A stretch of 40,420 bases of DNA from a virus. Location of the stretch: IMG/VR virus record IMGVR_UViG_3300025886_000069; one strand, written 5' to 3'. Positions 7,611 through 40,420 of the stretch are shown one piece after another (positions within the stretch are counted from its first letter, which is position 1; every line of letters starts with the position of its first letter). The position numbers were made by a program, and so were the translations under genes. The notes beneath the pieces were generated by a model. That model was not told the DNA's origin and searched no databases. It saw nothing but the letters and a program-made list of their open reading frames with translations.

Positions 7611-7826
7611 ATGGAACTGTCAAAATCAACCTCAACTATCTACAACCACCTGAAGGTCACCGGCTCCATTAGCCAACGGGAAGCTCTGGTGGAGTACAGC
7701 ACCGGCTCACTGTCCAAGGAAATCTCCCGACTCCGGGAAGCTGGTGTAGCCATTCAGACCGTGACGAAGACTCATCCAATCACCGGCAAAGCTTATGCCC
7801 GGTACGTGCTTTCCGAACAGGAGTAG
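7611..7826 (+). CDS. Winged helix-turn-helix DNA-binding protein
   Basis: GAAAGGA SD. GSISQREALVEY...LSKEISRLREAGVAI...GKAYARYVL fits a wHTH pattern. Confidence 0.5.
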   Translation: MELSKSTSTIYNHLKVTGSISQREALVEYSTGSLSKEISRLREAGVAIQTVTKTHPITGKAYARYVLSEQE

Positions 7827-8471: not shown

Positions 8472-9107
8472 ATGAAAAACGTACTTCTCTCTCTCGTTCT
8501 GGTCCTCGGGCTCTCGGGTATCTCCCAAGCCCGTACACTGCCCACTTTCAAAGTTTGTGCTGAACAAGCTAACAACGGCTGGATCCTTTACGGTATCCCA
8601 TCCTCCACTCACGTTGTCTGGGACACCCGGGAAACCGTAGGTCCCCTAATCGGAAACGGTAACTGTCAGGAAGGCTGGTCCGAGGAAGATAAGGTAGACT
8701 TCCGGCTCTCCTCCGAAATGCCACGTAAGTTTTGCCCGAGTGTTCACAGCTGGACCCTCGTATCCCCAGAAGGTGTAGCCGTCCAAGGGGCTACCTCTCC
8801 GGTTTATCCTTGCCGAGTAGCACCGAAGGAAACCGGTGGTAAGCCCTTGGGTAGTCGGGGAAAAGTGAAAGCTGCAAAAACGGGAGACGGCTCAGACACC
8901 GGGTCAGACGATGGAACCGACACCGACACTGACACCGACACTGGTACCGACACTGGTACCGACACTGACACCGACACTGGTACCGGGTCAGACGATGGCT
9001 CAGGTGGTAACCCTTGCGGAGGGAACTGTGGCAACGGTAACGGCAACGGAGGCGGTAACGGGACCGGCAACGAAGGTGGTGGCAACGACTCCCACCCACA
9101 CCGGTGA
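8472..9107 (+). CDS. Secreted Cys-containing protein with a Thr-Asp / Gly-Asn low-complexity tail
   Basis: Signal peptide MKNVLLSLVLVLGLSGISQA/RT. C-terminus GTDTDTDTDTGTDTGTDTDTDTGTG...GNGNGNGGGNGTGNEGGGN. Confidence 0.6.
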   Translation: MKNVLLSLVLVLGLSGISQARTLPTFKVCAEQANNGWILYGIPSSTHVVWDTRETVGPLIGNGNCQEGWSEEDKVDFRLSSEMPRKFCPSVHSWTLVSPEGVAVQGATSPVYPCRVAPKETGGKPLGSRGKVKAAKTGDGSDTGSDDGTDTDTDTDTGTDTGTDTDTDTGTGSDDGSGGNPCGGNCGNGNGNGGGNGTGNEGGGNDSHPHR

Positions 9108-9240: not shown

Positions 9241-9432
9241 ATGAACAACTCAATCCAGTGGGCTTACACAGCAGGCGGCAACGATGCTTACTACGGTAGG
9301 AACTGCTCTGCTAACTTTTACGTAAACGGTAACGTCCTCCGAGGTACACAGGTCACAAACCTCACAGAGGAAGAACGTGAAGCCTACCTTGAAGGTTACA
9401 ACGACGAAACCGATGGAAAGGACTGGGGCTAA
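9241..9432 (+). CDS. Hypothetical small protein
   Basis: AAAGGA SD upstream. 63 aa of natural-looking composition (…EEEREAYLEGYNDETDGKDWG). Confidence 0.5.
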   Translation: MNNSIQWAYTAGGNDAYYGRNCSANFYVNGNVLRGTQVTNLTEEEREAYLEGYNDETDGKDWG

Positions 9433-9605
9433 TGGTTGACGTCTGGGACCAGAAAACTTGGAAGGACCTCAGGGTCCTCCGTACCGAACTCCGAGAGGAA
9501 CTGTTCGATTGCACAGACCCCAAGCTTGAGGCTTCACTACAAGCCCAGCTGAACTCGGTACAAAGTGATATAGAGCAGGGGTTGACCGTACAGGTCCCCT
9601 TTTGA
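9432..9605 (+). CDS. Hypothetical small helical protein (57 aa, not in the ORF track)
   Basis: TAATG coupling. Translation MVDVWDQKTWKDLRVLRTELREELFDCTDPKLEASLQAQLNSVQSDIEQGLTVQVPF. Confidence 0.4.
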   Translation: MVDVWDQKTWKDLRVLRTELREELFDCTDPKLEASLQAQLNSVQSDIEQGLTVQVPF

Positions 9606-9673
9606 GCTACTACAGCCTCCAGAGAGGCGAGGCTTAAAATTGATACTGCAACCAAGTTTGATACTTTAGGCAC
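9603..9673 (-). repeat. Left arm of a 71-bp imperfect inverted repeat (partner 11353-11423)
   Basis: The reverse complement aligns with 11353-11423 without gaps, 60/71 identical. Encodes VPKVSNLVAVSILSLASLEAVVAQ. Confidence 0.9.
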
Positions 9674-9682
9674 TCTAACGAA
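9656..9682 (+). repeat. 27-bp perfect direct repeat, copy 1 (GTTTGATACTTTAGGCACTCTAACGAA)
   Basis: Identical to 9912-9938. Confidence 0.95.
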
Positions 9683-9747
9683 ATTGGGATTGTCAGACTC
9701 CCTGCCTCTTGGCTAAAGCTCTGGCTCTCTCCTCCTCCCAAACTTAG

Positions 9748-9781
9748 GGCCTCCAGTGGAAACACCGGGGGCCTCTTTTTT
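9748..9781 (+). terminator. Rho-independent terminator
   Basis: GGCCTCCAGTG-GAAA-CACCGGGGGCC stem-loop (one mismatch, one G-U pair) followed by TCTTTTTT. Confidence 0.6.
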
Positions 9782-9911
9782 GTCTAGGCTTCGGTAGCCC
9801 CAGAAGCCCCACACAGGGGCTCTAACTTATGGGTGGTGTGGTTACCCATCTGGAATAGTTAATGGCTGTCAGTGGCCTTTCTAGGGGGCTCTCTAGGGGG
9901 CTGGACTCGGT

Positions 9912-9938
9912 GTTTGATACTTTAGGCACTCTAACGAA
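9912..9938 (+). repeat. 27-bp perfect direct repeat, copy 2
   Basis: Identical to 9656-9682. Confidence 0.95.
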
Positions 9939-9953
9939 CTTTCCAAGGTGTCC

Positions 9954-9988
9954 GGGGGACCAGACGGGGGAAGTGACGGGGAGGGGGG
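9954..9988 (+). other. Canonical G-quadruplex motif G5-N7-G5-N7-G4-N1-G6
   Basis: GGGGGACCAGACGGGGGAAGTGACGGGGAGGGGGG read directly. Confidence 0.5.
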
Positions 9989-10124
9989 TTGTTCTTTTGA
10001 GTCAATGGGTTGGCTTGGGAACTGTGAGTAAAATGCTCACGTTTTTACGAGAGGGGGGCTCTGGTGGGGCTATGGTATTGGCTGCAAAATTGCACCTTGA
10101 GTTGCAAGATTTCTTATGAACTAT

Positions 10125-10516
10125 CGTTTTAGGATATGCCAAAATAGCTAAACTTTGGCTCAAACCAGAGCCTAACCTAAAGTAGTACCCCGACGAGAAA
10201 TAGATAAAATTTTAGTCAAATTGTTTTTCAACTGACACGGGTGTCCCGACGAAAGTTACCTAAAGTTTGACTCAAGTTTTACCACTACTCAAACGGGTGT
10301 CCCGACGGAAGTTACCTAAAGTTTGACTCAAGTTTTACCACTACTCAAACGGGTGTCTCTCCAAAAGTTACCTAAAGTTTGACTCAAGTTTTATCACCAC
10401 CCCAAGGTGTACTCCGACGGAAGATAGCTAAAATTAGAGCTAAAGTTTTCCTCTCGTAAAACGAGTGTCCCGACTAAAGATAGCTAAAATTAGAGCTAAA
10501 GTTTTCCTCTCGTATT
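10125..10516 (+). repeat. Seven tandem 56-bp iterons in two sub-families
   Basis: Units begin at 10125, 10181, 10237, 10293, 10349, 10405 and 10461. Units 10237 and 10293 are 55/56 identical. Shared core ACGGGTGTCCCGACG-AAG-TA(C/G)CTAAA-...-AAGTTTT. Confidence 0.9.
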
Positions 10517-10980
10517 TTGACTACGCAAAAGTCATACCGTTTATTTTGTCTCAAATTTTATGCAACTCTCGATTGAGTCCCAGACACCAGAGCCCTTCCG
10601 CAGTGAAGCCGGGGGTCATTCCAAAAGTACGGGGGGTACTTGAGATAGACTGACTGAACACTGGGGTATCCTTTTCGAATCACTTTCCCTGATCTGAGGT
10701 TGTAGTTTTCCGGAGGGACTCTCGTTTTAACCTAGACTTGTACCGTTCCCAATTAGCTCAAACTTTAGTCTTTACTTTAGCACTGTGACACTGGGGCAAC
10801 ACTGGGGGAACTCCGGTGGGTAGGTTCTACTTTTTGGATACGTCGGAAGACGGGAGTGGGTCCCTCAGGGTTCTAGGGGACGTTGTGGGGGCCTTGGGCT
10901 TACGGTTACATTTCCAAAATAAAAAAATAAGTTGTGACTACACAAAAAAGGAAAGCTGAATTGAACGGTACGAATGCCTT

Positions 10981-11094
10981 ACCAGAGTCCCACCAGAGCC
11001 CCACTAGAGTCCCACTAGAGCCCCACTAGGGGCATACCAGAGTACCATACCAGAGCACCTTACCAGAGTCCCACTAGAGTCATACTAGAGCTAA
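10981..11094 (+). repeat. About ten tandem 11-bp repeats, AC(C/T)AGAG(T/C)CCC
   Basis: accagagtccc accagagcccc actagagtccc actagagcccc actaggggcat accagagtacc ... accagagtccc actagagtcat actagagctaa. Confidence 0.9.
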
Positions 11095-11346
11095 AACCCC
11101 AGTAAAACCGTAGCTAAACCCCAGACCTCCTAACCCTCTAAATCGTAAACCCTTGAAATCCTTGGGTTTTCCCTACCGTAACCATATGTCTAAAAAAAGA
11201 GGTATATATTACTATAGTAAGAACTAGAGTTAAGGCCTCTAGAGTTACAACAAGGAAAACCGGTTAAGGTTAATTCCTAATAATTAATTTGCTAAGAGTC
11301 TTAAGGGTCCTTAAGGAAAACTTTAGTAAGGACTCTTGTAAGGACT

Positions 11347-11910
11347 TTGACAGTGCCTAAAGTATCAAATTTATTTGTAGTATTAATTTTAAGCCTTACC
11401 TCTTTAGGAGCTGTAGTAGCTCAGACTACGAATTATTCAGTAGAGGTTGAGCCTTACGTTATCGTAGTAGACAATGATCTCCGAGACGTAAGCCGAACAA
11501 TCAGCATCGACTCTGACAGTACCAAAAGAACCCTTGTGGTTAATAATCAAAACTTCAAGATTAAATCCAATTCTGGTTTTGTAGTAGAGCTTAGAATGCC
11601 AATGGATTTGGTTAGGGGCTACTGTGTCCCTGTCTTCAGGAATGACTCTAGTAATACCTATGTCAAAGCTGAGTTGATTGTCCGTGCGGGGAAGTCCCTT
11701 TATGACTCCCGTGGCCCTTCGTTCAACCACCTTACAAGAGGCGTTGTCATTGACTGCGACTCATCCGGAGTGGGAAGCCTCCTCATCACTAGACCTGAGC
11801 CAAGCCTTTCCCCTCTGGAATTTACAATCTGGTTAGCATTCCCAGCCGGGGAGCACTTAGCCGGAACCTACGATTTTACCATTCAGGTTTTCCCTCAAGT
11901 TATTGAATAG
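11347..11910 (+). CDS. Secreted beta-rich protein of unknown function (AT-rich moron)
   Basis: TTG at 11347 or GTG at 11353. Signal peptide KVSNLFVVLILSLTSLGAVVAQ/TT. Visibly more AT-rich than its neighbours. C-terminus ...AGTYDFTIQVFPQVIE. Confidence 0.6.
   Translation: MTVPKVSNLFVVLILSLTSLGAVVAQTTNYSVEVEPYVIVVDNDLRDVSRTISIDSDSTKRTLVVNNQNFKIKSNSGFVVELRMPMDLVRGYCVPVFRNDSSNTYVKAELIVRAGKSLYDSRGPSFNHLTRGVVIDCDSSGVGSLLITRPEPSLSPLEFTIWLAFPAGEHLAGTYDFTIQVFPQVIE
11353..11423 (+). repeat. Right arm of the 71-bp inverted repeat (start codon plus signal-peptide codons of the 11347 gene)
   Basis: See the left arm at 9603-9673. Confidence 0.9.
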
Positions 11911-11932: not shown

Positions 11933-12331
11933 ATGCCAGAAAAACTCCCATACAAAAAGCCGATTGGAAACAAGATCAGACGCCTTATCAAGGCGGGTGT
12001 CTCCATGAAAGACATTTGTGCCGATGTTCAAGGTATGAAGGATGCTCCAAGTTCCCCAACCTCCATCTACAAAATCTACGGTGCTGACATCGCAGAAGCC
12101 CGTTCAGAAATCTTTGAGGCTGTAGGTGACCGAGTGGTCAACCAAGCTCTCCACGGTGACCCCAAGGAAGCAGCTACCTTTAAAAGCCAAGAGCTCTTCC
12201 TCCGGTCTAAAGCCGGTTGGTCTCCTACCAGCACAGTCCAAGAGCAGGAAATCACCGAAGACCCTGACACAGACCTCTCGGCGATTGATGAACTCATGAA
12301 TCTTCTGGGAAAATCTACCTCGGAGGAGTAA
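11933..12331 (+). CDS. terS: Terminase small subunit
   Basis: Lies immediately upstream of terL. N-terminal HTH-like IRRLIKAGVSMKDICADV. ...ATFKSQELFLRSKAGWSPT resembles the conserved TerS segment. ATG at 11933 preferred over TTG at 11903. Confidence 0.6.
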   Translation: MPEKLPYKKPIGNKIRRLIKAGVSMKDICADVQGMKDAPSSPTSIYKIYGADIAEARSEIFEAVGDRVVNQALHGDPKEAATFKSQELFLRSKAGWSPTSTVQEQEITEDPDTDLSAIDELMNLLGKSTSEE

Positions 12332-12346
12332 CCCCGAGGAACCCGA

Positions 12347-13711
12347 ATGACCTATAAGATTCCACCTATCACAGCACAGACTTTAAGAGAGCTCCCGGAC
12401 GAACAAGTCCAAGCAGCACTTACAGCCCTTGGGCCAGAGAAGGTAGCAGAGCTTCAACACTCTTGGGAGTTTTGGGCTAGACCTGACCAGCTAGAGCCTA
12501 GAGGCAAAGACTGGAACATCTGGCTTGCACTTGCTGGACGTGGTTGGGGCAAGACCCGAGCCGGAGCCGAGTGGGTAAGACACCGGGTAAAATCCGGTGA
12601 TAAAATCATTCATGCTGTAGCCCCTACAAAAGGGGACGTCCGGAAGGTTATGGTTGAGGGTGACTCTGGACTCCTAAACGTTTGCTGGTCCGGAGACAAG
12701 ACCTACAAGGGTGTCCCGATGGGGGCTCCGGGATGGTCTCCGACAAACAACACAATCACTTGGGCCAACGGTGCAAGGTGTGTGTTCTTCTCAGCAGAGG
12801 ACCCGGAGAGACTTCGTGGACCTCAGTGTCATTCGGCTTGGACTGATGAGCTTTGTGCTTGGAGAAATGCACAGATGACTTGGGACATGATGATGTTCGG
12901 CCTCCGGTTGGGCAAGCATCCCCAAGTGTTCATCACCACCACCCCGAAGACCACTAAGCTCATTCGAAACATCATCGGTGACCCCAAGACGATAGTTACC
13001 AAGGGTAGCACCTTCGACAACTCGGCTAACCTTGCAGACACCTTCCTTGATGCTGTTAAGGCTACCTACGAAGGGACTCGGTTGGGTAGACAAGAGCTCT
13101 ACGCAGAAATCCTAGACGAAGCCTCCGGTGCTCTTTGGAACCGAACCCTGCTTGCCTCCTGTGAGGTTGAGCCAGACGACGTTCCAGACTTGAACCGTAT
13201 CGTAGTCTCAATTGACCCCGCAGTCTCAGCTAATGCAGAGTCCGACATGACAGGCATTGTTGTTGCTGGTGTCGATATCAATGGCAAGGCTTACGTCTTA
13301 GCAGACCACACTGATCGTTGTAGTCCCCAAGAGTGGGCTGCAAAAGCTATTCACCTTTATCATGAATATTCGGCTGACCGGATTGTCGCAGAGAAAAACC
13401 AAGGTGGGGACATGGTTCGTCACACCCTACACACCGAGGACCCTACCGTCCCGGTTAAATTGGTACATGCTTCCCGGGGCAAGATGGCCAGAGCCGAGCC
13501 GGTGTCTGCCCTGTACGAACAGGGTAAGGTTTACCATGTCAGAGGTCTTAACGACCTTGAGGATCAAATGGTCCAGTGGGAACCTTTGGGGTCTACGGGC
13601 TCCCCTGACCGGTTGGATGCTATGGTGTGGGCAATTACTGACTTGGCCCTTAACGGCTACGCCAAACCCCAGCTAAGGCTTGCTTACAGCTCTGCACAGG
13701 GTTTGAGGTAA
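12347..13711 (+). CDS. terL: Terminase large subunit (GTA/PBSX-like family)
   Basis: WEFWARPDQ..P...W..WLALAGRGWGKTRAGAEWV (Walker A region), TDELCAW (Walker B), C-terminal nuclease half with VSIDPA and DRLDAMVWA. Confidence 0.9.
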   Translation: MTYKIPPITAQTLRELPDEQVQAALTALGPEKVAELQHSWEFWARPDQLEPRGKDWNIWLALAGRGWGKTRAGAEWVRHRVKSGDKIIHAVAPTKGDVRKVMVEGDSGLLNVCWSGDKTYKGVPMGAPGWSPTNNTITWANGARCVFFSAEDPERLRGPQCHSAWTDELCAWRNAQMTWDMMMFGLRLGKHPQVFITTTPKTTKLIRNIIGDPKTIVTKGSTFDNSANLADTFLDAVKATYEGTRLGRQELYAEILDEASGALWNRTLLASCEVEPDDVPDLNRIVVSIDPAVSANAESDMTGIVVAGVDINGKAYVLADHTDRCSPQEWAAKAIHLYHEYSADRIVAEKNQGGDMVRHTLHTEDPTVPVKLVHASRGKMARAEPVSALYEQGKVYHVRGLNDLEDQMVQWEPLGSTGSPDRLDAMVWAITDLALNGYAKPQLRLAYSSAQGLR

Positions 13712-13808: not shown

Positions 13809-15164
13809 ATGACAAAAAAGAACCTTTCCCCTACAAAAGCAGTCAAAGAGCTCGGCGTTTCGGGCAATAATGTCCACAACGGTGGGATTCGTGCAGACGA
13901 GTTCCTTCCGGAGTTGCGTGGTCGTAAGGCCATTAAGAAGTTCCGGGAAATGCGTGAGAATGACTCTACCATTGGTGCTGTCCTCTATTCCGCAGAGCAA
14001 ATCCTCCGGGACGTGGACCTACGGGTCAAGCCCGCAGACGATAGTCCCGAAGCTAAGGCAGGCGTGGATTTCTTGGAGTCTGTTCTAGATAACATGGATC
14101 ACTCTCTGGATGACCATATCTCCGAGAGCCTTTCGTTCTTGTCCTACGGGTTTATGTGGTTTGAGCTTGTCTACTTCCGGCGTCCGGATGGTCGTTTGGG
14201 TGTAAAGAAGATTGCAGCCCGAGCACCTTGGACTATTGACCGGTTCGAAGTGGACCACAAGACGGGTGACGTTTTGGGTGTTTATCAGACGACCTCCCGT
14301 CCCGGATCCACAAACAACTTCATCCCCAAGTCGAAGTCTATCCACTACAAGACTCACACGATTAACGGGGACCCTTCTGGTCGTAGTATCCTCCGGAATG
14401 CGTACACCTCTTACGAGTACCTTAATAATATACAGGCTATTGAGGCCATTGCGGTTGAACGTGAACTTGCTGGTATTCCAGTAGGTCGCCTACCTTCCGA
14501 GTACCTGTCCTCAGATGCTACCGAGACACAGGCAGCTATCAAAGCTGAGTTCGAGACCATCCTCCGGGACGTTAAGTTCAACGAACAGGGTTTCTTGATC
14601 CTTCCTTCCGACATGTACCCGGACAAAGACGGGACTCCTACGAGCAACCCTCTGGTTAGTATCGAGTTAATGAGCTCCTCCGGTTCCCGGAACATCGCCA
14701 TTGACCCAATCATTAGCCGATACCAGCACGACATTGCACGGTCCGTCCTCTCTGAGTTCCTGCTACTTGGTTCTCAACAGTCCGGTGGTTCGTATGCATT
14801 GTCCAAGTCTAAGACGGACATTTATCTCCGGGCCTTGGAGAGCTACATTACGACCATCACCGATGTTCTGAACAAGCAGCTTGTGAAACCTCTTTGGGAG
14901 CTTAACGGGCTCTCCCCTGAGACTATGCCGAAAATCAAGGCTTCCGACGTTGCCCCTCACGACCTCCGGGAAATCTCCGGGTTCCTGAGAAACTTGAACC
15001 AAGCAAACATCACAGTGCACGATCACCCCGAGGTTATTCAAGACCTCATGGATATTGCGGAATTGAGCTATGAACCTAAGAAACCAAGTGTCCAGCCTGT
15101 TCAAGAGCTGGGAGTCTCGAAATCGGCTAAACAAGGATCGTTCAGCTTTAATGGGGATGAGTGA
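13809..15164 (+). CDS. Portal protein
   Basis: 451 aa, directly downstream of terL. GGGAG SD. Expected size and position for a portal; family not resolved by eye. Confidence 0.75.
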   Translation: MTKKNLSPTKAVKELGVSGNNVHNGGIRADEFLPELRGRKAIKKFREMRENDSTIGAVLYSAEQILRDVDLRVKPADDSPEAKAGVDFLESVLDNMDHSLDDHISESLSFLSYGFMWFELVYFRRPDGRLGVKKIAARAPWTIDRFEVDHKTGDVLGVYQTTSRPGSTNNFIPKSKSIHYKTHTINGDPSGRSILRNAYTSYEYLNNIQAIEAIAVERELAGIPVGRLPSEYLSSDATETQAAIKAEFETILRDVKFNEQGFLILPSDMYPDKDGTPTSNPLVSIELMSSSGSRNIAIDPIISRYQHDIARSVLSEFLLLGSQQSGGSYALSKSKTDIYLRALESYITTITDVLNKQLVKPLWELNGLSPETMPKIKASDVAPHDLREISGFLRNLNQANITVHDHPEVIQDLMDIAELSYEPKKPSVQPVQELGVSKSAKQGSFSFNGDE

Positions 15165-24843: not shown

Positions 24844-27393
24844 ATGGCTAAATATGAGCTGGTCTTAGGGACTGCTGAACTAGACACACCAATCACTCTC
24901 TCCGTACTAGAGTCCTCTGGACCCAAGGGAGAGACTGGGGACACCGGCCCACAAGGTCCTCAAGGTATCCAAGGGGATCAGGGGATTCAGGGGGCCACTG
25001 GTCTCACTGGTGCAACGGGTCCTACAGGTGCCACAGGTGCAGGGTTTACCGGAGGCTCCTACTCAGTAGGCACCGGTGTTGTTACCTTCACCTCCGCAGA
25101 TGGCCTTGGCTTTGTTACCGGGGACCTTCGGGGAGCCGATGGCACCAACGGAACAGACGGAACAAACGGGACTGGCTTTACCGGAGGCTCCTACAATGCT
25201 TCCACCGGTGTTGTTACCTTTACCTCTACAGATGGCCTTGGCTTTGTCACCGGGGACCTTCGGGGAGCCGATGGTCTGGGTACAGGTACGGTTGAATCTG
25301 TAGCTACGGGCTCCGGGTTGACGGGTGGCCCTGTCACCACAACCGGCACAATTTCCCATGCTGACACTTCTACTCAGCTTTCCCTTACTGCCCTGACTGG
25401 TGCAGACGTAGTCTCCGACGTAGACCTTGATGATTTCGGACACGTCACAGCACTTGCTACCCGGACCATGCTCCTGTCAGACCTCGGGTACACCGGGGAA
25501 ACCAATGCCACAGCTGACCAAACAGGTGCAGAGATTAAGTCTGCCTACGAAGCTGAGTTGGACACCAACGCCTACACCGATGCAGAGAAATCAAAGCTTG
25601 CTGGTGTAGAAGCTTCCGCAGATGTAACCGATACCGTCAACGTAACCGCAGCCGGTGCTTTGATGGACTCAGAGCTAACGGCTATCTCCTCAGTCAAGGC
25701 TCTGGACCAAGGTGTAGCAACTACGGATAGCCCTGCTTTTGCAGGACTTACGGTAGACACCAACACCATCAAAGTTGACTCCATTAATAACCGGGTTGGT
25801 ATCGTTCAAGCTGTTCCTACTGAGTCTCTGGACGTTGTTGGTAATATCGCAGTCTCCGGTACGGTAGACGGACGGGACCTTGCTACAGACGGCTCCAAGC
25901 TGGACGGTATCGAAGCAGGGGCAACAGGTGACCAGACAGGGGCAGAGATTAAGTCTGCCTACGAAGCTGAGTTGGACACCAATGCTTACACCGACACAGA
26001 GAAATCAAAGCTTGCCGGGATTGAGGCCGCAGCAGATGTTACGGATTCAACAAATGTAACCGCAGCCGGTGCTTTGATGGACTCAGAGCTAACGGCTATC
26101 TCCTCAGTCAAGGCATTAAACCAAGGTGTAGCAACGACGGATAGTCCGGGCTTCGTGAACCTGACTCTCTCAGGTGACCTTACCGTAAACGGTACGACAA
26201 CAACCCTAGACACTGCAAACCTGACAGTAGACGACTCCCTGATTGAGTTATCCCGTAACACCGCAGCAGCTCCTGTAAATGATGCTGGTATTGTTATTGA
26301 ACGGGGAACCTCGGACAATGCTTTCATCGGTTGGGACGAAAGTGTTGACAAGTTCGTAGTAGGAACCGGGACATTTACCGGAGCCACTACAGGAAACCTT
26401 ACAGTTACCACAGGGACACTTGTGGCCAACCTTGAGGGGACCGTGGACGGGCGTAACATCACAACGGACGGCTCCAAGCTGGACGGTATTGAGTCCGGAG
26501 CTACAGCTGACCAGACAGGGGCAGAGATTAAAGCAGCTTACGAAGCTGAACTTAACGCCTTTACCGATGCACAATTCACTAAGCTCTCAGGTATCGAGAC
26601 AGGGGCTACAGCAGACCAAACCGGTGCAGAGATTAAAGCAGCTTACGAAGCTGAACTTAACGCCTTTACCGATGCACAATTCACTAAGCTCTCAGGTATC
26701 GAGACAGGGGCTACAGCAGACCAGACAGGGGCAGAGATTAAAGCAGCTTACGAGGCTGAACTTAACGCATTTACTGATGCACAATTCACTAAGCTCTCAG
26801 GTATCGAGACAGGGGCTACAGCTGACCAGACGGGGGCAGAGATTAAGACTTCCCTGTTTGCCGAGGCTGACACCAACAACCTGACCGATACCCTGCTTAC
26901 CAAGTTGAACGGAGTCGAAGCCTCTGCGGATGTAACGGATTCAACAAACGTAACCGCAGCCGGTGCTTTGATGGACTCAGAGCTAACAGCCATTGCTTCC
27001 GTCAAGGCTCTGGACCAAGGTGTAGCAACTACGGACAGTCCTACCTTCGTGGCCGTGTCAGACAGCACCGGGAACCTTCGGGATATCCCACAGACAACCA
27101 AGACAGCAGCCTATGTTCTGGTCATTGGTGATGCAGGGACTCATATCTCAATCACCACCGGTGGGATCACGGTAAACCCCAACGTCTTCCAAGTGGGTGA
27201 CGCAGTGTCCATCTACAATGACTCTGGTGCTAGTCAAACCATAACACAGGGTACGAACTGCACTCTGCGTCTTGCAGGTACGACCACAACGGGGAACTTA
27301 ACCTTGGCAGAGTACGGGGTGTGTACCATTCTCTGCGTCAAAGACGTAACAGATGCAGACGTGTTTGTAGTTACCGGGGGAGGAATCAGCTAA
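24844..27393 (+). CDS. Tail fibre with a collagen-like stalk and nested repeat modules
   Basis: 13 consecutive G-X-Y triplets (aa 26-65). 44-aa repeat x2 (GFTGGSY...GDLRGADG). About 75-aa module x3 (…VTAAGALMDSELTAISSVKALDQGVATTDSP). 35-aa tandem repeat x3-4. Confidence 0.8.
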   Translation: MAKYELVLGTAELDTPITLSVLESSGPKGETGDTGPQGPQGIQGDQGIQGATGLTGATGPTGATGAGFTGGSYSVGTGVVTFTSADGLGFVTGDLRGADGTNGTDGTNGTGFTGGSYNASTGVVTFTSTDGLGFVTGDLRGADGLGTGTVESVATGSGLTGGPVTTTGTISHADTSTQLSLTALTGADVVSDVDLDDFGHVTALATRTMLLSDLGYTGETNATADQTGAEIKSAYEAELDTNAYTDAEKSKLAGVEASADVTDTVNVTAAGALMDSELTAISSVKALDQGVATTDSPAFAGLTVDTNTIKVDSINNRVGIVQAVPTESLDVVGNIAVSGTVDGRDLATDGSKLDGIEAGATGDQTGAEIKSAYEAELDTNAYTDTEKSKLAGIEAAADVTDSTNVTAAGALMDSELTAISSVKALNQGVATTDSPGFVNLTLSGDLTVNGTTTTLDTANLTVDDSLIELSRNTAAAPVNDAGIVIERGTSDNAFIGWDESVDKFVVGTGTFTGATTGNLTVTTGTLVANLEGTVDGRNITTDGSKLDGIESGATADQTGAEIKAAYEAELNAFTDAQFTKLSGIETGATADQTGAEIKAAYEAELNAFTDAQFTKLSGIETGATADQTGAEIKAAYEAELNAFTDAQFTKLSGIETGATADQTGAEIKTSLFAEADTNNLTDTLLTKLNGVEASADVTDSTNVTAAGALMDSELTAIASVKALDQGVATTDSPTFVAVSDSTGNLRDIPQTTKTAAYVLVIGDAGTHISITTGGITVNPNVFQVGDAVSIYNDSGASQTITQGTNCTLRLAGTTTTGNLTLAEYGVCTILCVKDVTDADVFVVTGGGIS
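24919..25038 (+). repeat. Collagen-like (G-X-Y)13 coding repeat
   Basis: GPKGETGDTGPQGPQGIQGDQGIQGATGLTGATGPTGATG. Confidence 0.9.
26497..26845 (+). repeat. 105-bp tandem repeat, three near-identical copies plus a diverged fourth
   Basis: GCAGAGATTA recurs at 26521, 26626, 26731 and 26836. Each copy encodes GATADQTGAEIKAAYEAELNAFTDAQFTKLSGIET. Confidence 0.9.
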
Positions 27394-34127: not shown

Positions 34128-34242
34128 AATTGCCTGTAACCAGTGGGACTACATTTACGCCTCACGGTACGACACCCTTGAGACCACAGACCAAATCCTA
34201 GAGTACAACCTCAGAAGGGAAGCTTTCTGCAAGGGTTACTAA
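34012..34242 (+). CDS. o-spanin (Rz1-like lipoprotein), overlapped architecture
   Basis: AAGGA SD 8 nt upstream of ATG 34012, in the +1 frame of the i-spanin gene. Signal peptide with lipobox LLLTV-AG-C; extends 115 nt beyond the i-spanin stop. Confidence 0.55.
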   Translation: MKTPTTGQKMRTMLPVMLTGFLLLTVAGCSSRKGGIEIEIACNQWDYIYASRYDTLETTDQILEYNLRREAFCKGY

Positions 34243-34248
34243 TGAAAG

Positions 34249-34279
34249 GCCTCCGGATAACTCCGGGGGCTTTTTTTTT
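34249..34279 (+). terminator. Strong rho-independent terminator ending the late operon
   Basis: GCCTCCGGA-TAAC-TCCGGGGGC stem-loop followed by T9. Confidence 0.85.
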
Positions 34280-34300
34280 GTCTCTAGTGCATTTTTACTC

Positions 34301-34328
34301 TTGATTTCCTCGGAGGAGGGTTTAAGTT
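34301..34328 (+). promoter_or_regulatory. Candidate sigma70-type promoter TTGATT-N16-TAAGTT (early operon)
   Basis: Read directly; lies just downstream of the strong terminator and upstream of the SD-led ORF at 34366. Confidence 0.4.
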
Positions 34329-34792: not shown

Positions 34793-35052
34793 AGAACTTT
34801 AAAGAGATAGAACAAGCAGCCCGGGACCAGCTGGTAGAAGCCCACCTTAAGACTGTAGGTGCCACGATTTGCCCACCGGCAACTCACTCCGAAACAGTGT
34901 CACCCAAGCTACCCTCTGCGGAGGACCGGGTAATGCGAAGTGACTACTACGCCTCCCTCACGTACCGGGAGCTTAACGGGTTGGAGCTTGCCTCTTGCAC
35001 CGAGGACGGTGTAGACGAAAGCCAGAAGAAAGGTAAGACAGGTGACGAATAA
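34789..35052 (+). CDS. Hypothetical early protein
   Basis: ATGA coupling; 87 aa. Confidence 0.45.
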   Translation: MKNFKEIEQAARDQLVEAHLKTVGATICPPATHSETVSPKLPSAEDRVMRSDYYASLTYRELNGLELASCTEDGVDESQKKGKTGDE

Positions 35053-35065
35053 AGAGCAGACGGAC

Positions 35066-35611
35066 ATGGTGAAGGTTGTAAGCAGCCTGTCATGGAAGTT
35101 CAATGACCCACAGATTCAGCAGGACTTGTTTCAAGTTGGGGCTGTAGCTTGGTTGGAGTCTGTCAACAAAGGGGACGGTAGGGAAGCTGTTGAGGCTTGG
35201 GAAGCAATGAATGACTTTATGTCTAAGTCGAAAATTGCAGTAACTGTGCCGATGCACGAAGGGACCCGGACTGCACTTAAGAGGATCCGTTCTGGCCATT
35301 CTTGGAACGAAGGTGATTGTTTGGACCGAAAGTCCTACGAGAGCCTTGCCACAGTTTTAGGTGGGATGGGGATGGTTGCCGATGAAATGCCTAGAGCATC
35401 TTCTAAGAAGTCTGAGACTACGGTGTATTTTCAGCAGTTGGAGAACTTGGTCTCTCGGAAGTTCGGAGAGCAGTACGTGCAACTTTTCGTGCTACATTAC
35501 GGGGAAATGGGCTACACCTTGCAGGAAGTTGCTAACGAGTCGGGCCTTGGTTTGTCCCTCGTGAAGAAGATGAACAGTCAGCTTAAAGCCTTTTTACGGG
35601 CTAAATCGTAA
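35066..35611 (+). CDS. Sigma-70 family (ECF-like) RNA polymerase sigma factor
   Basis: Region-2-like IQQDLFQVGAVAWLESV. Region-4 HTH-like QYVQLFVLHYGEMGYTLQEVANESGLGLSLVKKMNSQLKAFLRA. ATG at 35066 preferred over GTG at 35042. Confidence 0.55.
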   Translation: MVKVVSSLSWKFNDPQIQQDLFQVGAVAWLESVNKGDGREAVEAWEAMNDFMSKSKIAVTVPMHEGTRTALKRIRSGHSWNEGDCLDRKSYESLATVLGGMGMVADEMPRASSKKSETTVYFQQLENLVSRKFGEQYVQLFVLHYGEMGYTLQEVANESGLGLSLVKKMNSQLKAFLRAKS

Positions 35612-35669: not shown

Positions 35670-37268
35670 ATGTACTTAAACGAAGAACAGTCCCACCAAC
35701 CTTGTCCACACCCAAGCTGTAGCTCTTCCGACGGGTTCAGCTTTAACCCTGAAAAGGGAGTTGGTAAGTGCTTTAGCTGTGATAATGCCTACCCTGCAAA
35801 AGGGGTAAATTACTCAGAGGAAACCCGAATGAACTACCCACTTAAGGACAACGACAACATTTCCTCGTTTGTCCCAAAACACATTCAAGCCAAGGACAAC
35901 GGAAAACTTAAGTCTGGTTTTGTAGCCATGCGGGGGATTTCTGAGAACACTATGGCTTTCTATGGGGTCAAGACTTACTCCGACAACGAAGGCCCTGTTA
36001 AGCAGGAATACACCTACCCCTCCGGTGGTCAGAAGGTCCGGTACTTCCCCAAGGCATTTTCTGCAAACGGGCTCCGCCAAGACGAACTGTTTGGGATGAA
36101 CCTTTGGAACGCAGGTTCGGCTAGGTTTGTGACAGTGACCGAAGGGGAGCTAGACGCCCTCTCAGCCTACCAAATCCTCCAAGGGACCTACACCAACCCT
36201 GTAGTCTCTTTCCCGTCTGCAACTCCGTCTAAAGGTCTTTGGGAGAAGTGTGGTCCTTGGTTGGATAGCTTCGAAAAGATCATTGTTGCCACAGACAGTG
36301 ATGCTCCCGGCAATGCTCTTGCTGAGAAAATCTTTCGTCTGTTCCCGTCCAAGACTTACCGGATGAACTTCGACAAGTACAAGGACCCCAACGAGTTCCT
36401 GTCAAACGGCAAGCAGCAAGAATTTAAGTCTGCTTGGTACAATGCCCGGAAGTTCACTCCGGAGAACGTGCTTACTACCCCAGACCAGCTGCTCTCTCTC
36501 TACCGGGACACACCGGACCACCAGTTCGCCCCTACGGGAATCCAAGCACTAGACGACAAGTTGTTAGGTATCCATCAAGGGCAGTTCCACGTTCTTAAGG
36601 CTGCTACCGGTATTGGCAAAACTGAAGTGATGCGGTTCCTTGAGTTTAGCTTACTTAAGCAGGGGATACCCTTTGCAGCTTGGCACTTGGAGGAAACAAA
36701 GCTCCGGACACTTTTGGGTCTGGTCTCCTACCAGCTAGGTAAGAACGTAACCCGACGTGACTTGATTGAGGACGAAGAGACGAATGCGGAAGTTGAGAAG
36801 GCAATTCAAGAGATTGCAGAAAAGGAGGTCTTCCACCAGTTTTACATGCCGGAGGGCTCTACCATTGATGACTTTATCGAACAAATCCGGTACTTCGCCA
36901 CAGCTGCGGAAGTAAAGTTCATCTTCTTTGAGCCGATTCAGGATGTAGTCTCCGGGATGACTGACGAAAACAAAGAGGCGTTGCTTGCAGACCTGTCTGT
37001 CCGTCTTTCTAAGCTTGCTGCGGAGTTGAACATCGCCCTTGTGACCATCGGCCACACTAACGAAATGGGGGAGGTTAAGTATTGCCGAATGATAACCCAA
37101 CGTGCAGGCGTAGTTATCGACATTCACCGGGACAAAGAGTCCGAGGACCTAGAGGAACGAAACACCACCTACTTGACGATTAAGAAGAACCGTCCTTGCT
37201 CTGAGGAAGGTACAGCCGGTAAGCTCCGGTTTGACCCTCGATCCTTCACCCTACAGGAGATTTTGTGA
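35670..37268 (+). CDS. Bifunctional primase-helicase (T7 gp4-like)
   Basis: Zn finger CPHPSC...x16...CFSC, TOPRIM VTVTEGELDALS and ATDSDAPGN, Walker A KAATGIGKTE, Walker B IFFEPIQD. ATG at 35670 has a GGAGAGG SD; alternative ATG at 35634. Confidence 0.85.
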   Translation: MYLNEEQSHQPCPHPSCSSSDGFSFNPEKGVGKCFSCDNAYPAKGVNYSEETRMNYPLKDNDNISSFVPKHIQAKDNGKLKSGFVAMRGISENTMAFYGVKTYSDNEGPVKQEYTYPSGGQKVRYFPKAFSANGLRQDELFGMNLWNAGSARFVTVTEGELDALSAYQILQGTYTNPVVSFPSATPSKGLWEKCGPWLDSFEKIIVATDSDAPGNALAEKIFRLFPSKTYRMNFDKYKDPNEFLSNGKQQEFKSAWYNARKFTPENVLTTPDQLLSLYRDTPDHQFAPTGIQALDDKLLGIHQGQFHVLKAATGIGKTEVMRFLEFSLLKQGIPFAAWHLEETKLRTLLGLVSYQLGKNVTRRDLIEDEETNAEVEKAIQEIAEKEVFHQFYMPEGSTIDDFIEQIRYFATAAEVKFIFFEPIQDVVSGMTDENKEALLADLSVRLSKLAAELNIALVTIGHTNEMGEVKYCRMITQRAGVVIDIHRDKESEDLEERNTTYLTIKKNRPCSEEGTAGKLRFDPRSFTLQEIL

Positions 37269-38398
37269 TGACTGAATTAAACCTAATGCTTGGCAACTGC
37301 CTAGACAGCCTGAAGACCCTAGAGGACAATTCGGTGGATTCCATCGTGACTGACCCGCCCTATGGTCTGTCATTCATGGGTAAGAAGTGGGACTACGAGG
37401 TCCCTAGTGTAGCAATCTGGGAGGAATGCCTCCGGGTACTGAAACCCGGGGGACACCTGTTGGCCTTTGCTGGCACTCGTACACAGCATAGAATGGCAGT
37501 AAACATCGAAGATGCAGGATTTGAAATCCGTGACATGATTGCATGGGTCTATGGTTCTGGCTTTACTAAGTCTCACAATATCAGCAAGGCTATTGATAAG
37601 ATGGCCGGGGCTAGACGTGAGGTTGTTGGCTTCAAGCGTCAAGGACCGAAGTCCATGTTTCACGACGGTAAGCCACGGCCCGAAACTCTGCCCGAAACTC
37701 TGCCCGAAACTCTGCTTGCCAAGAAATGGGACGGCTGGGGTACTGCCTTGAAACCTGCCCTTGAACCTATCACTGTTGCTCGTAAACCTATCTCGGAAAA
37801 GACCGTGGCAGGTAATGTTCTGAAGTATGGGACAGGGGCTATTAACATCGATGGTTGTCGGGTGGGGGATGAGGGCGGATGTGCAGGTGCAGGTGCAGGT
37901 GCAGGTGCAAGGGTCTACGGGAACGGATTAAACGGGACGTTTGCAAAACCCGTCGAAGGGTTAGGCCGCTTCCCTGCAAACCTAATCCATGATGGTTCGG
38001 ATGAGGTGCTTGAGTTGGCAGGCGATTCCGCCCGTTTCTTCTACTGTGCCAAGGCGTCTAAGAAAGATCGTGATGAAGGTCTAGCTCATATGGAAGAACA
38101 GCAGTTTGTTCAGTGGCAGACAGGAAACGGTGCTAGTGGCAAGCCTTCCTCTATGTCGGAGGGACGTGACACCAAACGGAAGAACACACACCCAACGGTA
38201 AAGCCTACGGACCTCATGCGTTATTTGGTCCGACTTGTCACCCACGAGGGTGGTGTAGTCCTTGACCCATTCATGGGATCTGGCAGTACCGGCAAGGCTG
38301 CAATGCTTGAGGGGTTTAATTTCCTTGGCATGGAGCTTGACGAGGAATATATGGAAATTGCAAAGGCTCGTATCGAGTCCGTAAGGAGTAAAGAATGA
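37268..38398 (+). CDS. DNA methyltransferase (N6-adenine/N4-cytosine, beta class)
   Basis: IVTDPPYG catalytic motif near the N-terminus and VLDPFMGSGSTGKAA SAM motif near the C-terminus; TGATG coupling. Confidence 0.85.
   Translation: MTELNLMLGNCLDSLKTLEDNSVDSIVTDPPYGLSFMGKKWDYEVPSVAIWEECLRVLKPGGHLLAFAGTRTQHRMAVNIEDAGFEIRDMIAWVYGSGFTKSHNISKAIDKMAGARREVVGFKRQGPKSMFHDGKPRPETLPETLPETLLAKKWDGWGTALKPALEPITVARKPISEKTVAGNVLKYGTGAINIDGCRVGDEGGCAGAGAGAGARVYGNGLNGTFAKPVEGLGRFPANLIHDGSDEVLELAGDSARFFYCAKASKKDRDEGLAHMEEQQFVQWQTGNGASGKPSSMSEGRDTKRKNTHPTVKPTDLMRYLVRLVTHEGGVVLDPFMGSGSTGKAAMLEGFNFLGMELDEEYMEIAKARIESVRSKE
37679..37714 (+). repeat. Perfect (CCCGAAACTCTG)x3 in-frame repeat (PETLPETLPETL)
   Basis: Read directly inside the methyltransferase gene. 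Confidence 0.95.
37883..37906 (+). repeat. Perfect (GCAGGT)x4 in-frame repeat (AGAGAGAG)
   Basis: Read directly inside the methyltransferase gene. Confidence 0.95.
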
Positions 38399-40293: not shown

Positions 40294-40420
40294 AAAAAAG
40301 CCAGCTAAGGAGACCCGACATGGCTACTACAAAACGAATTATCGCCGAAGGAACTGTTGAGTGGGTTAAGATTTTCTCGGACCACTTTGATGATAACATG
40401 CAGTATCACGAAAACACTAA
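40294..40420. repeat. Terminal overlap, second copy (identical to 1-127)
   Basis: Includes the duplicated first 101 nt of the SSB gene (ATG at 40320). Confidence 0.95.

Follow-up and report, generated by a model that had tools for sequence, protein, structure and literature searches.

What is the function of a tandem array of ten 11-bp units in the only large non-coding stretch of a marine phage genome? The window analysed here is a 40,420-nucleotide stretch of viral DNA (IMG/VR record IMGVR_UViG_3300025886_000069), a circular assembly of a lytic CRP-6-type marine phage with a genome of about 40.3 kb. The array (10981-11094, + strand) lies in a gap of about 1.7 kb (9606-11346) separating the genes for replication and nucleotide metabolism from the packaging/structural operon. 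Judging from the sequence, the most economical reading is that the array is a conserved, helically phased element of the protein-binding type in the leader of the packaging operon, and the putative small terminase (TerS) encoded in that operon at 11933-12331 is the best single candidate for its binder.

The ten units follow one another head to tail, with starts at 10981, 10992, 11003, 11014, 11025, 11036, 11049, 11062, 11073 and 11084 (start-to-start spacings of 11, 11, 11, 11, 11, 13, 13, 11 and 11 bp), and read ACCAGAGTCCC ACCAGAGCCCC ACTAGAGTCCC ACTAGAGCCCC ACTAGGGGCAT ACCAGAGTACC(at) ACCAGAGCACC(tt) ACCAGAGTCCC ACTAGAGTCAT ACTAGAGCTAA. The consensus is ACYAGAGYCCC, with AC-NN-GAG-N-C as the core shared across lineages. 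The first-pass annotation, made from the sequence alone, had described about ten such units at a spacing of roughly one helical turn, and this description was borne out by direct reading, by Tandem Repeats Finder (TRF; period of 11, with a 22-bp higher-order repeat at 95%) and by lag-11 identity in 110-bp windows, which reached its genome maximum at position 10970 (0.62, vs. a genome mean of 0.253 and a standard deviation of 0.046). The word was also over-represented genome-wide: 16 matches to ACYAGAGYCCC with one mismatch at most, vs. 3.96 +/- 1.8 in shuffled sequences, none of 100 shuffles reaching 16. Eleven of these 16 matches fall in 10055-11072, which is about 2.5% of the genome. The array is genuine and well beyond chance.

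The same sequence was present in independent assemblies, and the array is therefore not an assembly artefact: the 230 bp comprising the array and the flanking Box 1 (described below) were base-for-base the same in an ENA assembly (L098) of an about 99% identical strain, and a further metagenome assembly of independent origin, which two collections list as L093 and L095, has the identical ten-unit array. A second 11-bp periodic element adjoins the array, a triplet of TAAAACCCCAG (TRF; 11092-11124, + strand), which extends the phased stretch to about 145 bp; it is specific to the window lineage and missing in the alignment with L003 and L004. A hidden coding sequence was ruled out for the array, there being no conserved reading frame in 9600-11400. 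Two other candidate identities were discarded. GANTC methylation sites were only about 2-fold enriched in the gap and occurred in 4 of the 10 units, and unit position 8 was poorly conserved (0.36 bits), so methylation is not the conserved feature of the array. A minus-strand G-quadruplex was rejected by eye, as the L004 units carry no G-runs.

Relatives were sorted by their large terminase (TerL) into three groups, A, B and C. Group A comprises four lineages (the window; L002/L003/L097; L004; and L087-L090) with TerL 94% and TerS 76-87% identical to those of the window, and all four carry the array in the same position, between Box 1 and a second conserved box (Box 2), and in the same 11-bp register. 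Copy number varies between 6 and 10 (6-8 units in the relatives of the window), and so do the words: L004 carries ACCAGAGTCAC, two copies of ACTGGAGTCAC, ACTGGAGTCAT, two copies of ACCGGAGTCAT and ACCGGAGGACA, with runs of identical units, and the units of L087 include ACCAGAGCCCC, ACCAGAGTCAT and ACCTTGGGACC. Considering the 31 units of the four lineages together, A1 and C2 were invariant (31/31), G7 was nearly so (30/31), G5, A6 and C9 were strong, and positions 3, 4, 8 and 11 were loose. Spacing was exactly 11 bp in 24 of the 27 unit intervals; words and copy number thus drift and the register is kept. The array zone is one of the few alignable stretches of a gap which is otherwise unalignable across group A.

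Could such an array be a minisatellite, generated by slippage and tolerated in a non-coding leader without any function of its own? Recent unit duplications are apparent (the 22-bp higher-order repeat in the window, the identical-unit runs in L004), and the variable copy number and the low information of positions 3, 4, 8 and 11 would also be expected. However, the array is kept at the same site in four lineages amid mostly unalignable sequence, its AC is invariant, its GAG is strongly kept and its register is held; moreover, the extra copies of the word, in both orientations, are confined to the gap, and the phage genome is compact. A minisatellite is improbable on this evidence. Phased direct sites which keep their register while their words drift point to a multimeric protein touching one face of the DNA.

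The array is flanked by conserved elements on both sides. Box 1 (ATTTCCAAAATAAAAAAATAA, 10910-10930, + strand) is A-rich and occurs once in the genome, 50 bp upstream of the array; it is followed by a small palindrome, TTGTGACTACACAA (10932-10945). Further upstream, a TGGGTCCCT element (10857-10865) is invariant in group A, whose lineages have no promoter hexamers there. Downstream, the array ends 114 bp before a conserved bipartite element, AACC-N18-GTATATAT (11180-11222, + strand), which is unique in the genome and, from its sequence, is probably a late promoter/operator. It overlaps Box 2, a 12-bp perfect palindrome (TTACTATAGTAA, 11209-11220), likewise unique in the genome, which takes the forms TACTATAGTA, TATACTTAAGTATA or CTGTATACAG in relatives. 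Both boxes recur in phage groups in which the DNA around them cannot be aligned, and are candidates for the core of a packaging (pac) site, an operator or a promoter. Box 1 was also considered as a minus-strand intrinsic terminator and rejected by eye, its hairpin being weak and not kept in L003.

Box 1 is conserved beyond group A: it is still recognisable in groups B and C, although their gap is otherwise unalignable. The group C leader contains, in order, a sigma-70-type promoter (TTGACA-N5-TGGGACCCT-N3-TATAAT), Box 1, a covarying small palindrome, about three repeats of ~12 bp, a second promoter and two 14-bp palindromes. Here TGGGACCCT, the counterpart of TGGGTCCCT, lies in the spacer of a TTGACA-N17-TATAAT promoter facing terS. 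The window word formed no clusters in 80 relatives of groups B and C. These groups do have long arrays of other units, 15 or more copies of the 12-bp CTATGCTATGGT in group B and, in group C, 10-12 copies of the 11-bp GTTCCTGATTC, the 16-bp GTGACATTTCTGCAAC and the 21-25-bp TTTCCACTGGAGGGG, but these are located at another site, the divergent junction where the replication module meets the late module. They are not positional homologues of the window array, and they are unlikely to be TerS sites because, in group C, they differ among sub-lineages which share one TerS helix. The group C divergent intergenic region is also 7-8-fold enriched in GANTC (25-28 vs. 3-4 per kb), mostly as YGATTCG within the 11-bp arrays; GANTC-rich regions were located in L054 (2130-2985), L023 (400-1400), L030 (550-1500) and L047 (480-1500).

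This surrounding of promoter-like elements and palindromes raises the question of whether the array has an operator or architectural role in the late (packaging/structural) operon, with a small phage or host protein polymerising on it, as ParR does on parC and omega on heptad arrays, to repress or activate the element at 11180-11222. The distance of 114 bp to that element and to Box 2 would suit such a role, and so would the homologous group C leader, where regulatory elements (sigma-70-type promoters and paired 14-bp palindromes) are dense. The phage may also encode its own sigma-like factor (35042-35611, see below), and the iterons of R1 parC (ten 11-bp repeats) serve as operators as well (PMC2241845). 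On the other hand, no candidate regulator was found, no ribbon-helix-helix protein was detected among the roughly 50 open reading frames (ORFs) scanned, and groups B and C run the same operon without such an array. The sole clear small helix-turn-helix (HTH) protein, a winged-HTH protein encoded at 7611-7826, was rejected as binder, being missing from L003, which has the array. The operator reading was judged rather unlikely.

Copies of the word also occur outside the array. The most striking are two tandem inverted copies (ACCAGAGCCCC and ACCATAGCCCC, 10055-10076, - strand) about 900 bp upstream, one perfect and the other with one mismatch, in 11-bp register; an isolated direct copy (ACCAGAGCCCT, + strand) lies at 10586-10596 and an isolated inverted copy (ACGAGAGTCCC, - strand) at 10715-10725, both with one mismatch. 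Between the inverted pair and the direct copy there are about five 56-bp iterons (10189-10524, + strand), every one of which includes a ACGGGTGTCCC-like word, and three of which carry the core ACNNGAGNC once, inverted (10269, 10325 and 10381; core match ACTTGAGTC). Most of the layout described in the first-pass annotation, in which the iterons have inverted copies on their upstream side and the direct array on their downstream side, was thus recovered, including the inverted pair in a scan allowing one mismatch and the direct copy, which it had placed at 10586-10595; the inverted copy at 10715-10725 was absent from its list. Two other sites that it had counted as related forms fared less well: 9816-9826 is a two-mismatch match and only loosely related to the word, and 9881-9904 is a separate 12-bp tandem (two copies of TCTAGGGGGCTC) with only AGAGCCCC in common with it.

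The layout is partly repeated in relatives. In L003 and L004 the corresponding place is occupied by 71-bp iterons bearing array-like words (ACGGGAGTC..ACCTCTGGT), and in L003 inverted words (ACCAGAGCC and ACCAGAGTCC, at about 3318 and 3381) precede the array by about 800 bp. In the about 99% identical strain L098 the number of 56-bp iterons differs by one, and the 11-bp array is unchanged. The inverted copy at 10715-10725 overlaps a TTTTCCGGAGGGAC motif (10706-10719). This motif, TTTCC-N2-4-GGAGGG, occurs once in the gap and once at 34305-34320, where it adjoins a probable early promoter just after the terminator of the late operon (about 34240-34280); CRP-6 and further phages of group C have 4-5 iterations of it (L001, 57-159; L054, 2140-2250).

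Phased direct repeats beside an A-rich tract are the classical layout of iteron origins, as in lambda ori and plasmid RepA origins, and the array could be part of a replication origin, providing initiator sites beside an A/T-rich unwinding element (Box 1) and acting with the 56-bp iterons and the inverted copies. The genome has no other large non-coding region, and this one is rich in iterons; Box 1 is 50 bp away from the array, and local GC content falls to 0.43-0.44; word-like sites occur in each large iteron; and iteron copy number differs between strains. The resemblance to the classical layout is nevertheless one of form only: no Rep/initiator protein domain was detected in the ORFs scanned and no DnaA box (with one mismatch at most) was found within 9606-11346. 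The replisome is T7-like (gp4-type primase-helicase and PolA), and replisomes of this kind usually rely on transcription-dependent origins. In its conservation, Box 1 tracks TerL (at 81%, no protein is more conserved between the window and CRP-6) and not PolA or the primase (58-59%), and in groups B and C the iteron-rich region is found at another site, the divergent junction, with genes between it and Box 1. An origin is unlikely.

The inverted pair also bears on a role at the RNA level, the repeats being, as part of a 5' leader or non-coding RNA, a platform or sponge for an RNA-binding protein, or pairing with the upstream inverted copies: the 26-nt stretch at 10052-10077 is 88% complementary to the array, and the homologous group C leader is probably transcribed, lying downstream of a sigma-70-type promoter. 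No upstream promoter was found in group A, however, where a sigma-70 consensus scan of the + strand of the gap found nothing; the array had no Rfam match and its fold energy was unremarkable (z = 0.22 for the + strand and -1.44 for the - strand), results on which a structured RNA or known RNA family had been rejected; and a strict 11-bp period suits the geometry of the DNA helix over that of RNA. An RNA-level role is very improbable.

There remains the packaging machinery itself. The operon following the gap begins with a gene for a 185-aa protein with a signal-peptide-like N-terminal segment (11353-11910, + strand), 258 bp from the end of the array; it is present in the window, L003 and L004 lineages, and the L087 lineage has no intact copy. 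Next comes the candidate terS (11933-12331, + strand), 838 bp from the array, which has the same placement in the non-coding leader of this operon in all four lineages. It encodes a 132-aa protein with an N-terminal three-helix HTH-like domain, a long helix and an acidic tail. The protein had no Pfam, PHROG or NCBIfam match; its AlphaFold2 model (pLDDT, predicted local distance difference test, of 71) gave as top PDB fold matches the TerS proteins of PaP3, Sf6, NV1 and E217, all weak (E 0.36-4.5), and several of its BFVD matches carry the name small terminase. The gene lies directly upstream of terL in 77 of 80 IMG/VR relatives, and the remaining 3 contigs end before terS. Directly upstream of this gene, two lineages of group A carry an inserted HNH_3 (+AP2-like) homing-endonuclease gene (L003, 5085-5580; L087, 1347-1850); it is not present in the window or L004.

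TerL (12347-13711, + strand; Terminase_6N and Terminase_6C domains) has homologues in R5C, in the Arthrobacter phages Tank and Wilde, and in Gordonia and Microbacterium phages. Some of these phages are listed in the RcGTA-like TerL group, which is nested within headful packagers (PMC7947584). The circular assembly agrees with this placement, which suggests headful packaging: the two window ends carry an identical 127-bp stretch (1-127 and 40294-40420) which falls inside a gene, and therefore reflects a circularised assembly rather than true terminal repeats.

It is possible, and tentatively preferred here, that the array serves headful packaging as the recognition part of a pac site and wraps around the small terminase encoded at 11933-12331, with its ring of HTH motifs. 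TerS is favoured because of the position of the array in the packaging leader, the HTH-like TerS candidate, the headful-type TerL, and the length of about 110 bp at one-turn spacing, which matches the geometry described for the TerS rings of SF6 and SPP1. On a ring of about 300 Å in circumference, the HTH motifs follow each other at intervals of about one B-DNA turn, and about 100 bp would wrap the ring (PMC4737164); ten sites of 11 bp fit this geometry. Also in favour are the order of Box 1, array and terS, which has parallels in lambda and SPP1 (see below), the parallel conservation of Box 1 and TerL, and the restriction of both the word and the putative TerS recognition helix to group A. 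About ten direct sites, one per helical turn, would offer one DNA face to a multimeric binder. The DNA would wrap the ring, with successive N-terminal HTH domains each touching one AC-NN-GAG-N-C unit; TerS on the array would mark phage concatemers for packaging and position TerL for a nearby first cut, with Box 1, 50 bp upstream, as the candidate cut or assembly point. The headful series would then proceed rightwards through terS and terL, and the upstream inverted copies and the word-like sites of the 56-bp iterons may be auxiliary sites. The stricter version, in which the array is a sequence-encoded wrapping track with one site per subunit of the TerS ring, beside a conserved cleavage box, is somewhat doubtful.

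Several observations weigh against TerS as the binder. The protein is assigned as TerS from its gene position and weak fold matches. Box 1 and a homologous TerS are also present in groups B and C, but with at most about three ~12-bp repeats between Box 1 and terS, so a long array is no general requirement of this TerS family; within group A, copy number varies between 6 and 10, so a strict match of units to subunits is not conserved. The array is separated from terS by the 185-aa gene and, in some relatives, by the HNH gene. The word and the putative recognition helix, APSSPTS(I/V)YKIYG, are both specific to group A, groups B and C having other helices and no word, but both are nearly constant within group A, so that covariation cannot discriminate. 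The contig ends of relatives are scattered, with no pile-up at the array or Box 1, though this is uninformative for a headful phage; group C showed a weak, non-robust excess of ends 300-600 bp upstream of terL (11 vs. about 5 per neighbouring bin). Finally, the DNA-binding domains of SF6 TerS had little sequence specificity in vitro (PMC4737164).

The form of the array is very near that of the R1 parC centromere, with ten 11-bp direct repeats and one ParR dimer on each (PMC2241845), and it could in principle be a parC/parS-like centromere for the partition of an episomal prophage. This is close to refuted: no ParM, ParA, ParR or ParB and no lysogeny, plasmid-maintenance, integrase or repressor genes were found among the ORFs scanned, 185,579 bacterial and archaeal genomes contained no TerS relative, no prophage or plasmid relative was recovered by this search, and CRP-6, a relative in culture, was obtained on its host as a free phage, with no lysogeny genes described in its functional annotation (PMC6918029). 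Thus, where the first-pass annotation had likened the array to binding sites of a small terminase or of partition/origin proteins, its resemblance to a protein-binding array holds as the most economical reading, with TerS as the best single candidate, and partition is disfavoured.

CRP-6 (a Roseobacter RCA phage) is the nearest cultured phage, and it is described as founding a phage group ubiquitous in marine viromes yet uncharacterised (PMC6918029). All long ORFs are on the + strand: the packaging/structural module extends from about 11.35 kb to 34 kb and includes a Mu-type portal (13809-15164), and the early module for replication and nucleotide metabolism runs from 34.3 kb through the junction to 9.6 kb (gp4-type primase-helicase, N6/N4 methyltransferase, PolA, exonuclease, RusA, MazG, B12-dependent ribonucleotide reductase, ThyX, glutaredoxin and PhoH). 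No tRNA and no Rfam family reaching its gathering score were detected in the gap, and it had no nucleotide match among 50,697 phage records.

The entire gap is bracketed by a 72-nt inverted repeat (85%; 9603-9674 and 11352-11423). In inverted form, the repeat duplicates the beginning of the 185-aa gene at 11353 (start codon and signal-peptide-like N-terminus); its upstream copy lies directly after the stop of the ORF at 9432-9605, and its 30-nt core recurs directly, as a third copy, at 9912-9941 (97%). It is not present in L002 and L003, and could be a relic of, or a substrate for, an inversion of the gap. Close to its upstream copy, 9717-9788 (+ strand) gave a weak Rfam match to the alphaproteobacterial small RNA suhB/mmgR (24.8 bits, gathering score 41, E 0.022); a CTCCTCCTCCC motif lies within this stretch, whose end falls in the terminator of the preceding operon, and an Rfam search of the relatives recovered nothing.

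The early gene at 35042-35611 encodes a 189-aa protein that weakly matches regions 2 and 4 of sigma-70, in the correct order (NCBIfam extracytoplasmic function sigma superfamily, E 9e-6, below the cut-off; Pfam region 2, E 0.012, and region 4, E 0.12) and has no CRP-6 homologue; by these matches it may be a phage-encoded sigma factor. An N6/N4 DNA methyltransferase is encoded at 37265-38398, its C-terminal part being nearest to CcrM. Two coding tandem repeats were also observed: a 105-bp in-frame unit (26485-26846, 3.4 copies) in an 849-aa collagen-repeat protein (24844-27393), and in-frame units of 6, 12 and 24 bp (8916-9080) in a 211-aa ORF of unknown function (8472-9107).

Among ring-shaped TerS proteins, those studied best show little sequence specificity in DNA binding, and we know of no natural site whose sequence mirrors the ring, as the wrap-around model of TerS would have it. 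If the stricter version with one site per subunit is true, the array would be a natural pac site spelling out the HTH periodicity of the ring, and would make a long-debated model directly testable in abundant marine phages; a conserved array of ten 11-bp units next to a conserved box would be a clean substrate for TerS footprinting or cryo-electron microscopy. Should it be an operator or origin element instead, it would still show where the control region lies in a 1.7-kb gap that has no other annotation. The features mapped by comparison (Box 1, Box 2, the TGGGWCCCT element and the lineage-specific arrays) can also be used to annotate this phage group.

How does the array compare with known systems? 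The pac site of P1 consists of clustered TGATCA/G hexamers, with Dam methylation gating cleavage. The array likewise clusters short words, some of them with GANTC (the CcrM site), in a phage with a CcrM-like methyltransferase, but GANTC is limited to 4 of the 10 window units and falls on a poorly conserved position. Classical iterons are 17-22 bp long, about 22 bp apart, with a cognate initiator gene nearby. The origins built from them (lambda ori with O; plasmid origins with RepA, pi or TrfA) share with this locus the phased direct repeats by an A/T-rich tract, the distant inverted extra copies and the strain-variable copy number of iterons; the units here are of 11 bp, and no initiator was found.

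In lambda the order is cosN, cosB (with the R3-I1-R2-R1 sites for gpNu1) and Nu1. The same order, from cut-site candidate to cluster of putative TerS sites to terS, is seen here, together with a repeated word having some inverted copies, and with lineage-specific sites paired with a faster-evolving TerS. Lambda, however, has three 16-bp sites, a bend induced by integration host factor (IHF) and cohesive ends, whereas the present array has ten sites of 11 bp, inspection by eye showed no IHF consensus, and the TerL clade suggests headful packaging.

The type II centromere of R1 (parC/ParR; PMC2241845) resembles the array in its ten 11-bp direct repeats, in the placement of the repeats by a promoter, on which those of parC act as operators, and in a phased arrangement of the kind that gives a curved or wrapped complex. 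The parC repeats are split 5 + 5 around the promoter, each bound by one protein dimer; those described here are contiguous and upstream, in a lytic phage with no ParR or ParM gene and not in a plasmid.

The pac site of SPP1, studied with SF6 (Greive et al. 2016, PMC4737164), belongs to a headful-type phage and has direct repeats spanning the promoters upstream of terS and the start of that gene, for a TerS ring with HTH motifs about one turn apart and a proposed wrap of about 100 bp. Its repeats form three small separate sets (boxes a, b and c), vs. ten units in a single array here; this array lies about 840 bp from terS, with a gene between them, and its binding by TerS is only predicted. The SF6 domains show little preference for sequence, whereas in this marine phage the periodicity expected of a wrapped ring is explicit in the sequence itself.

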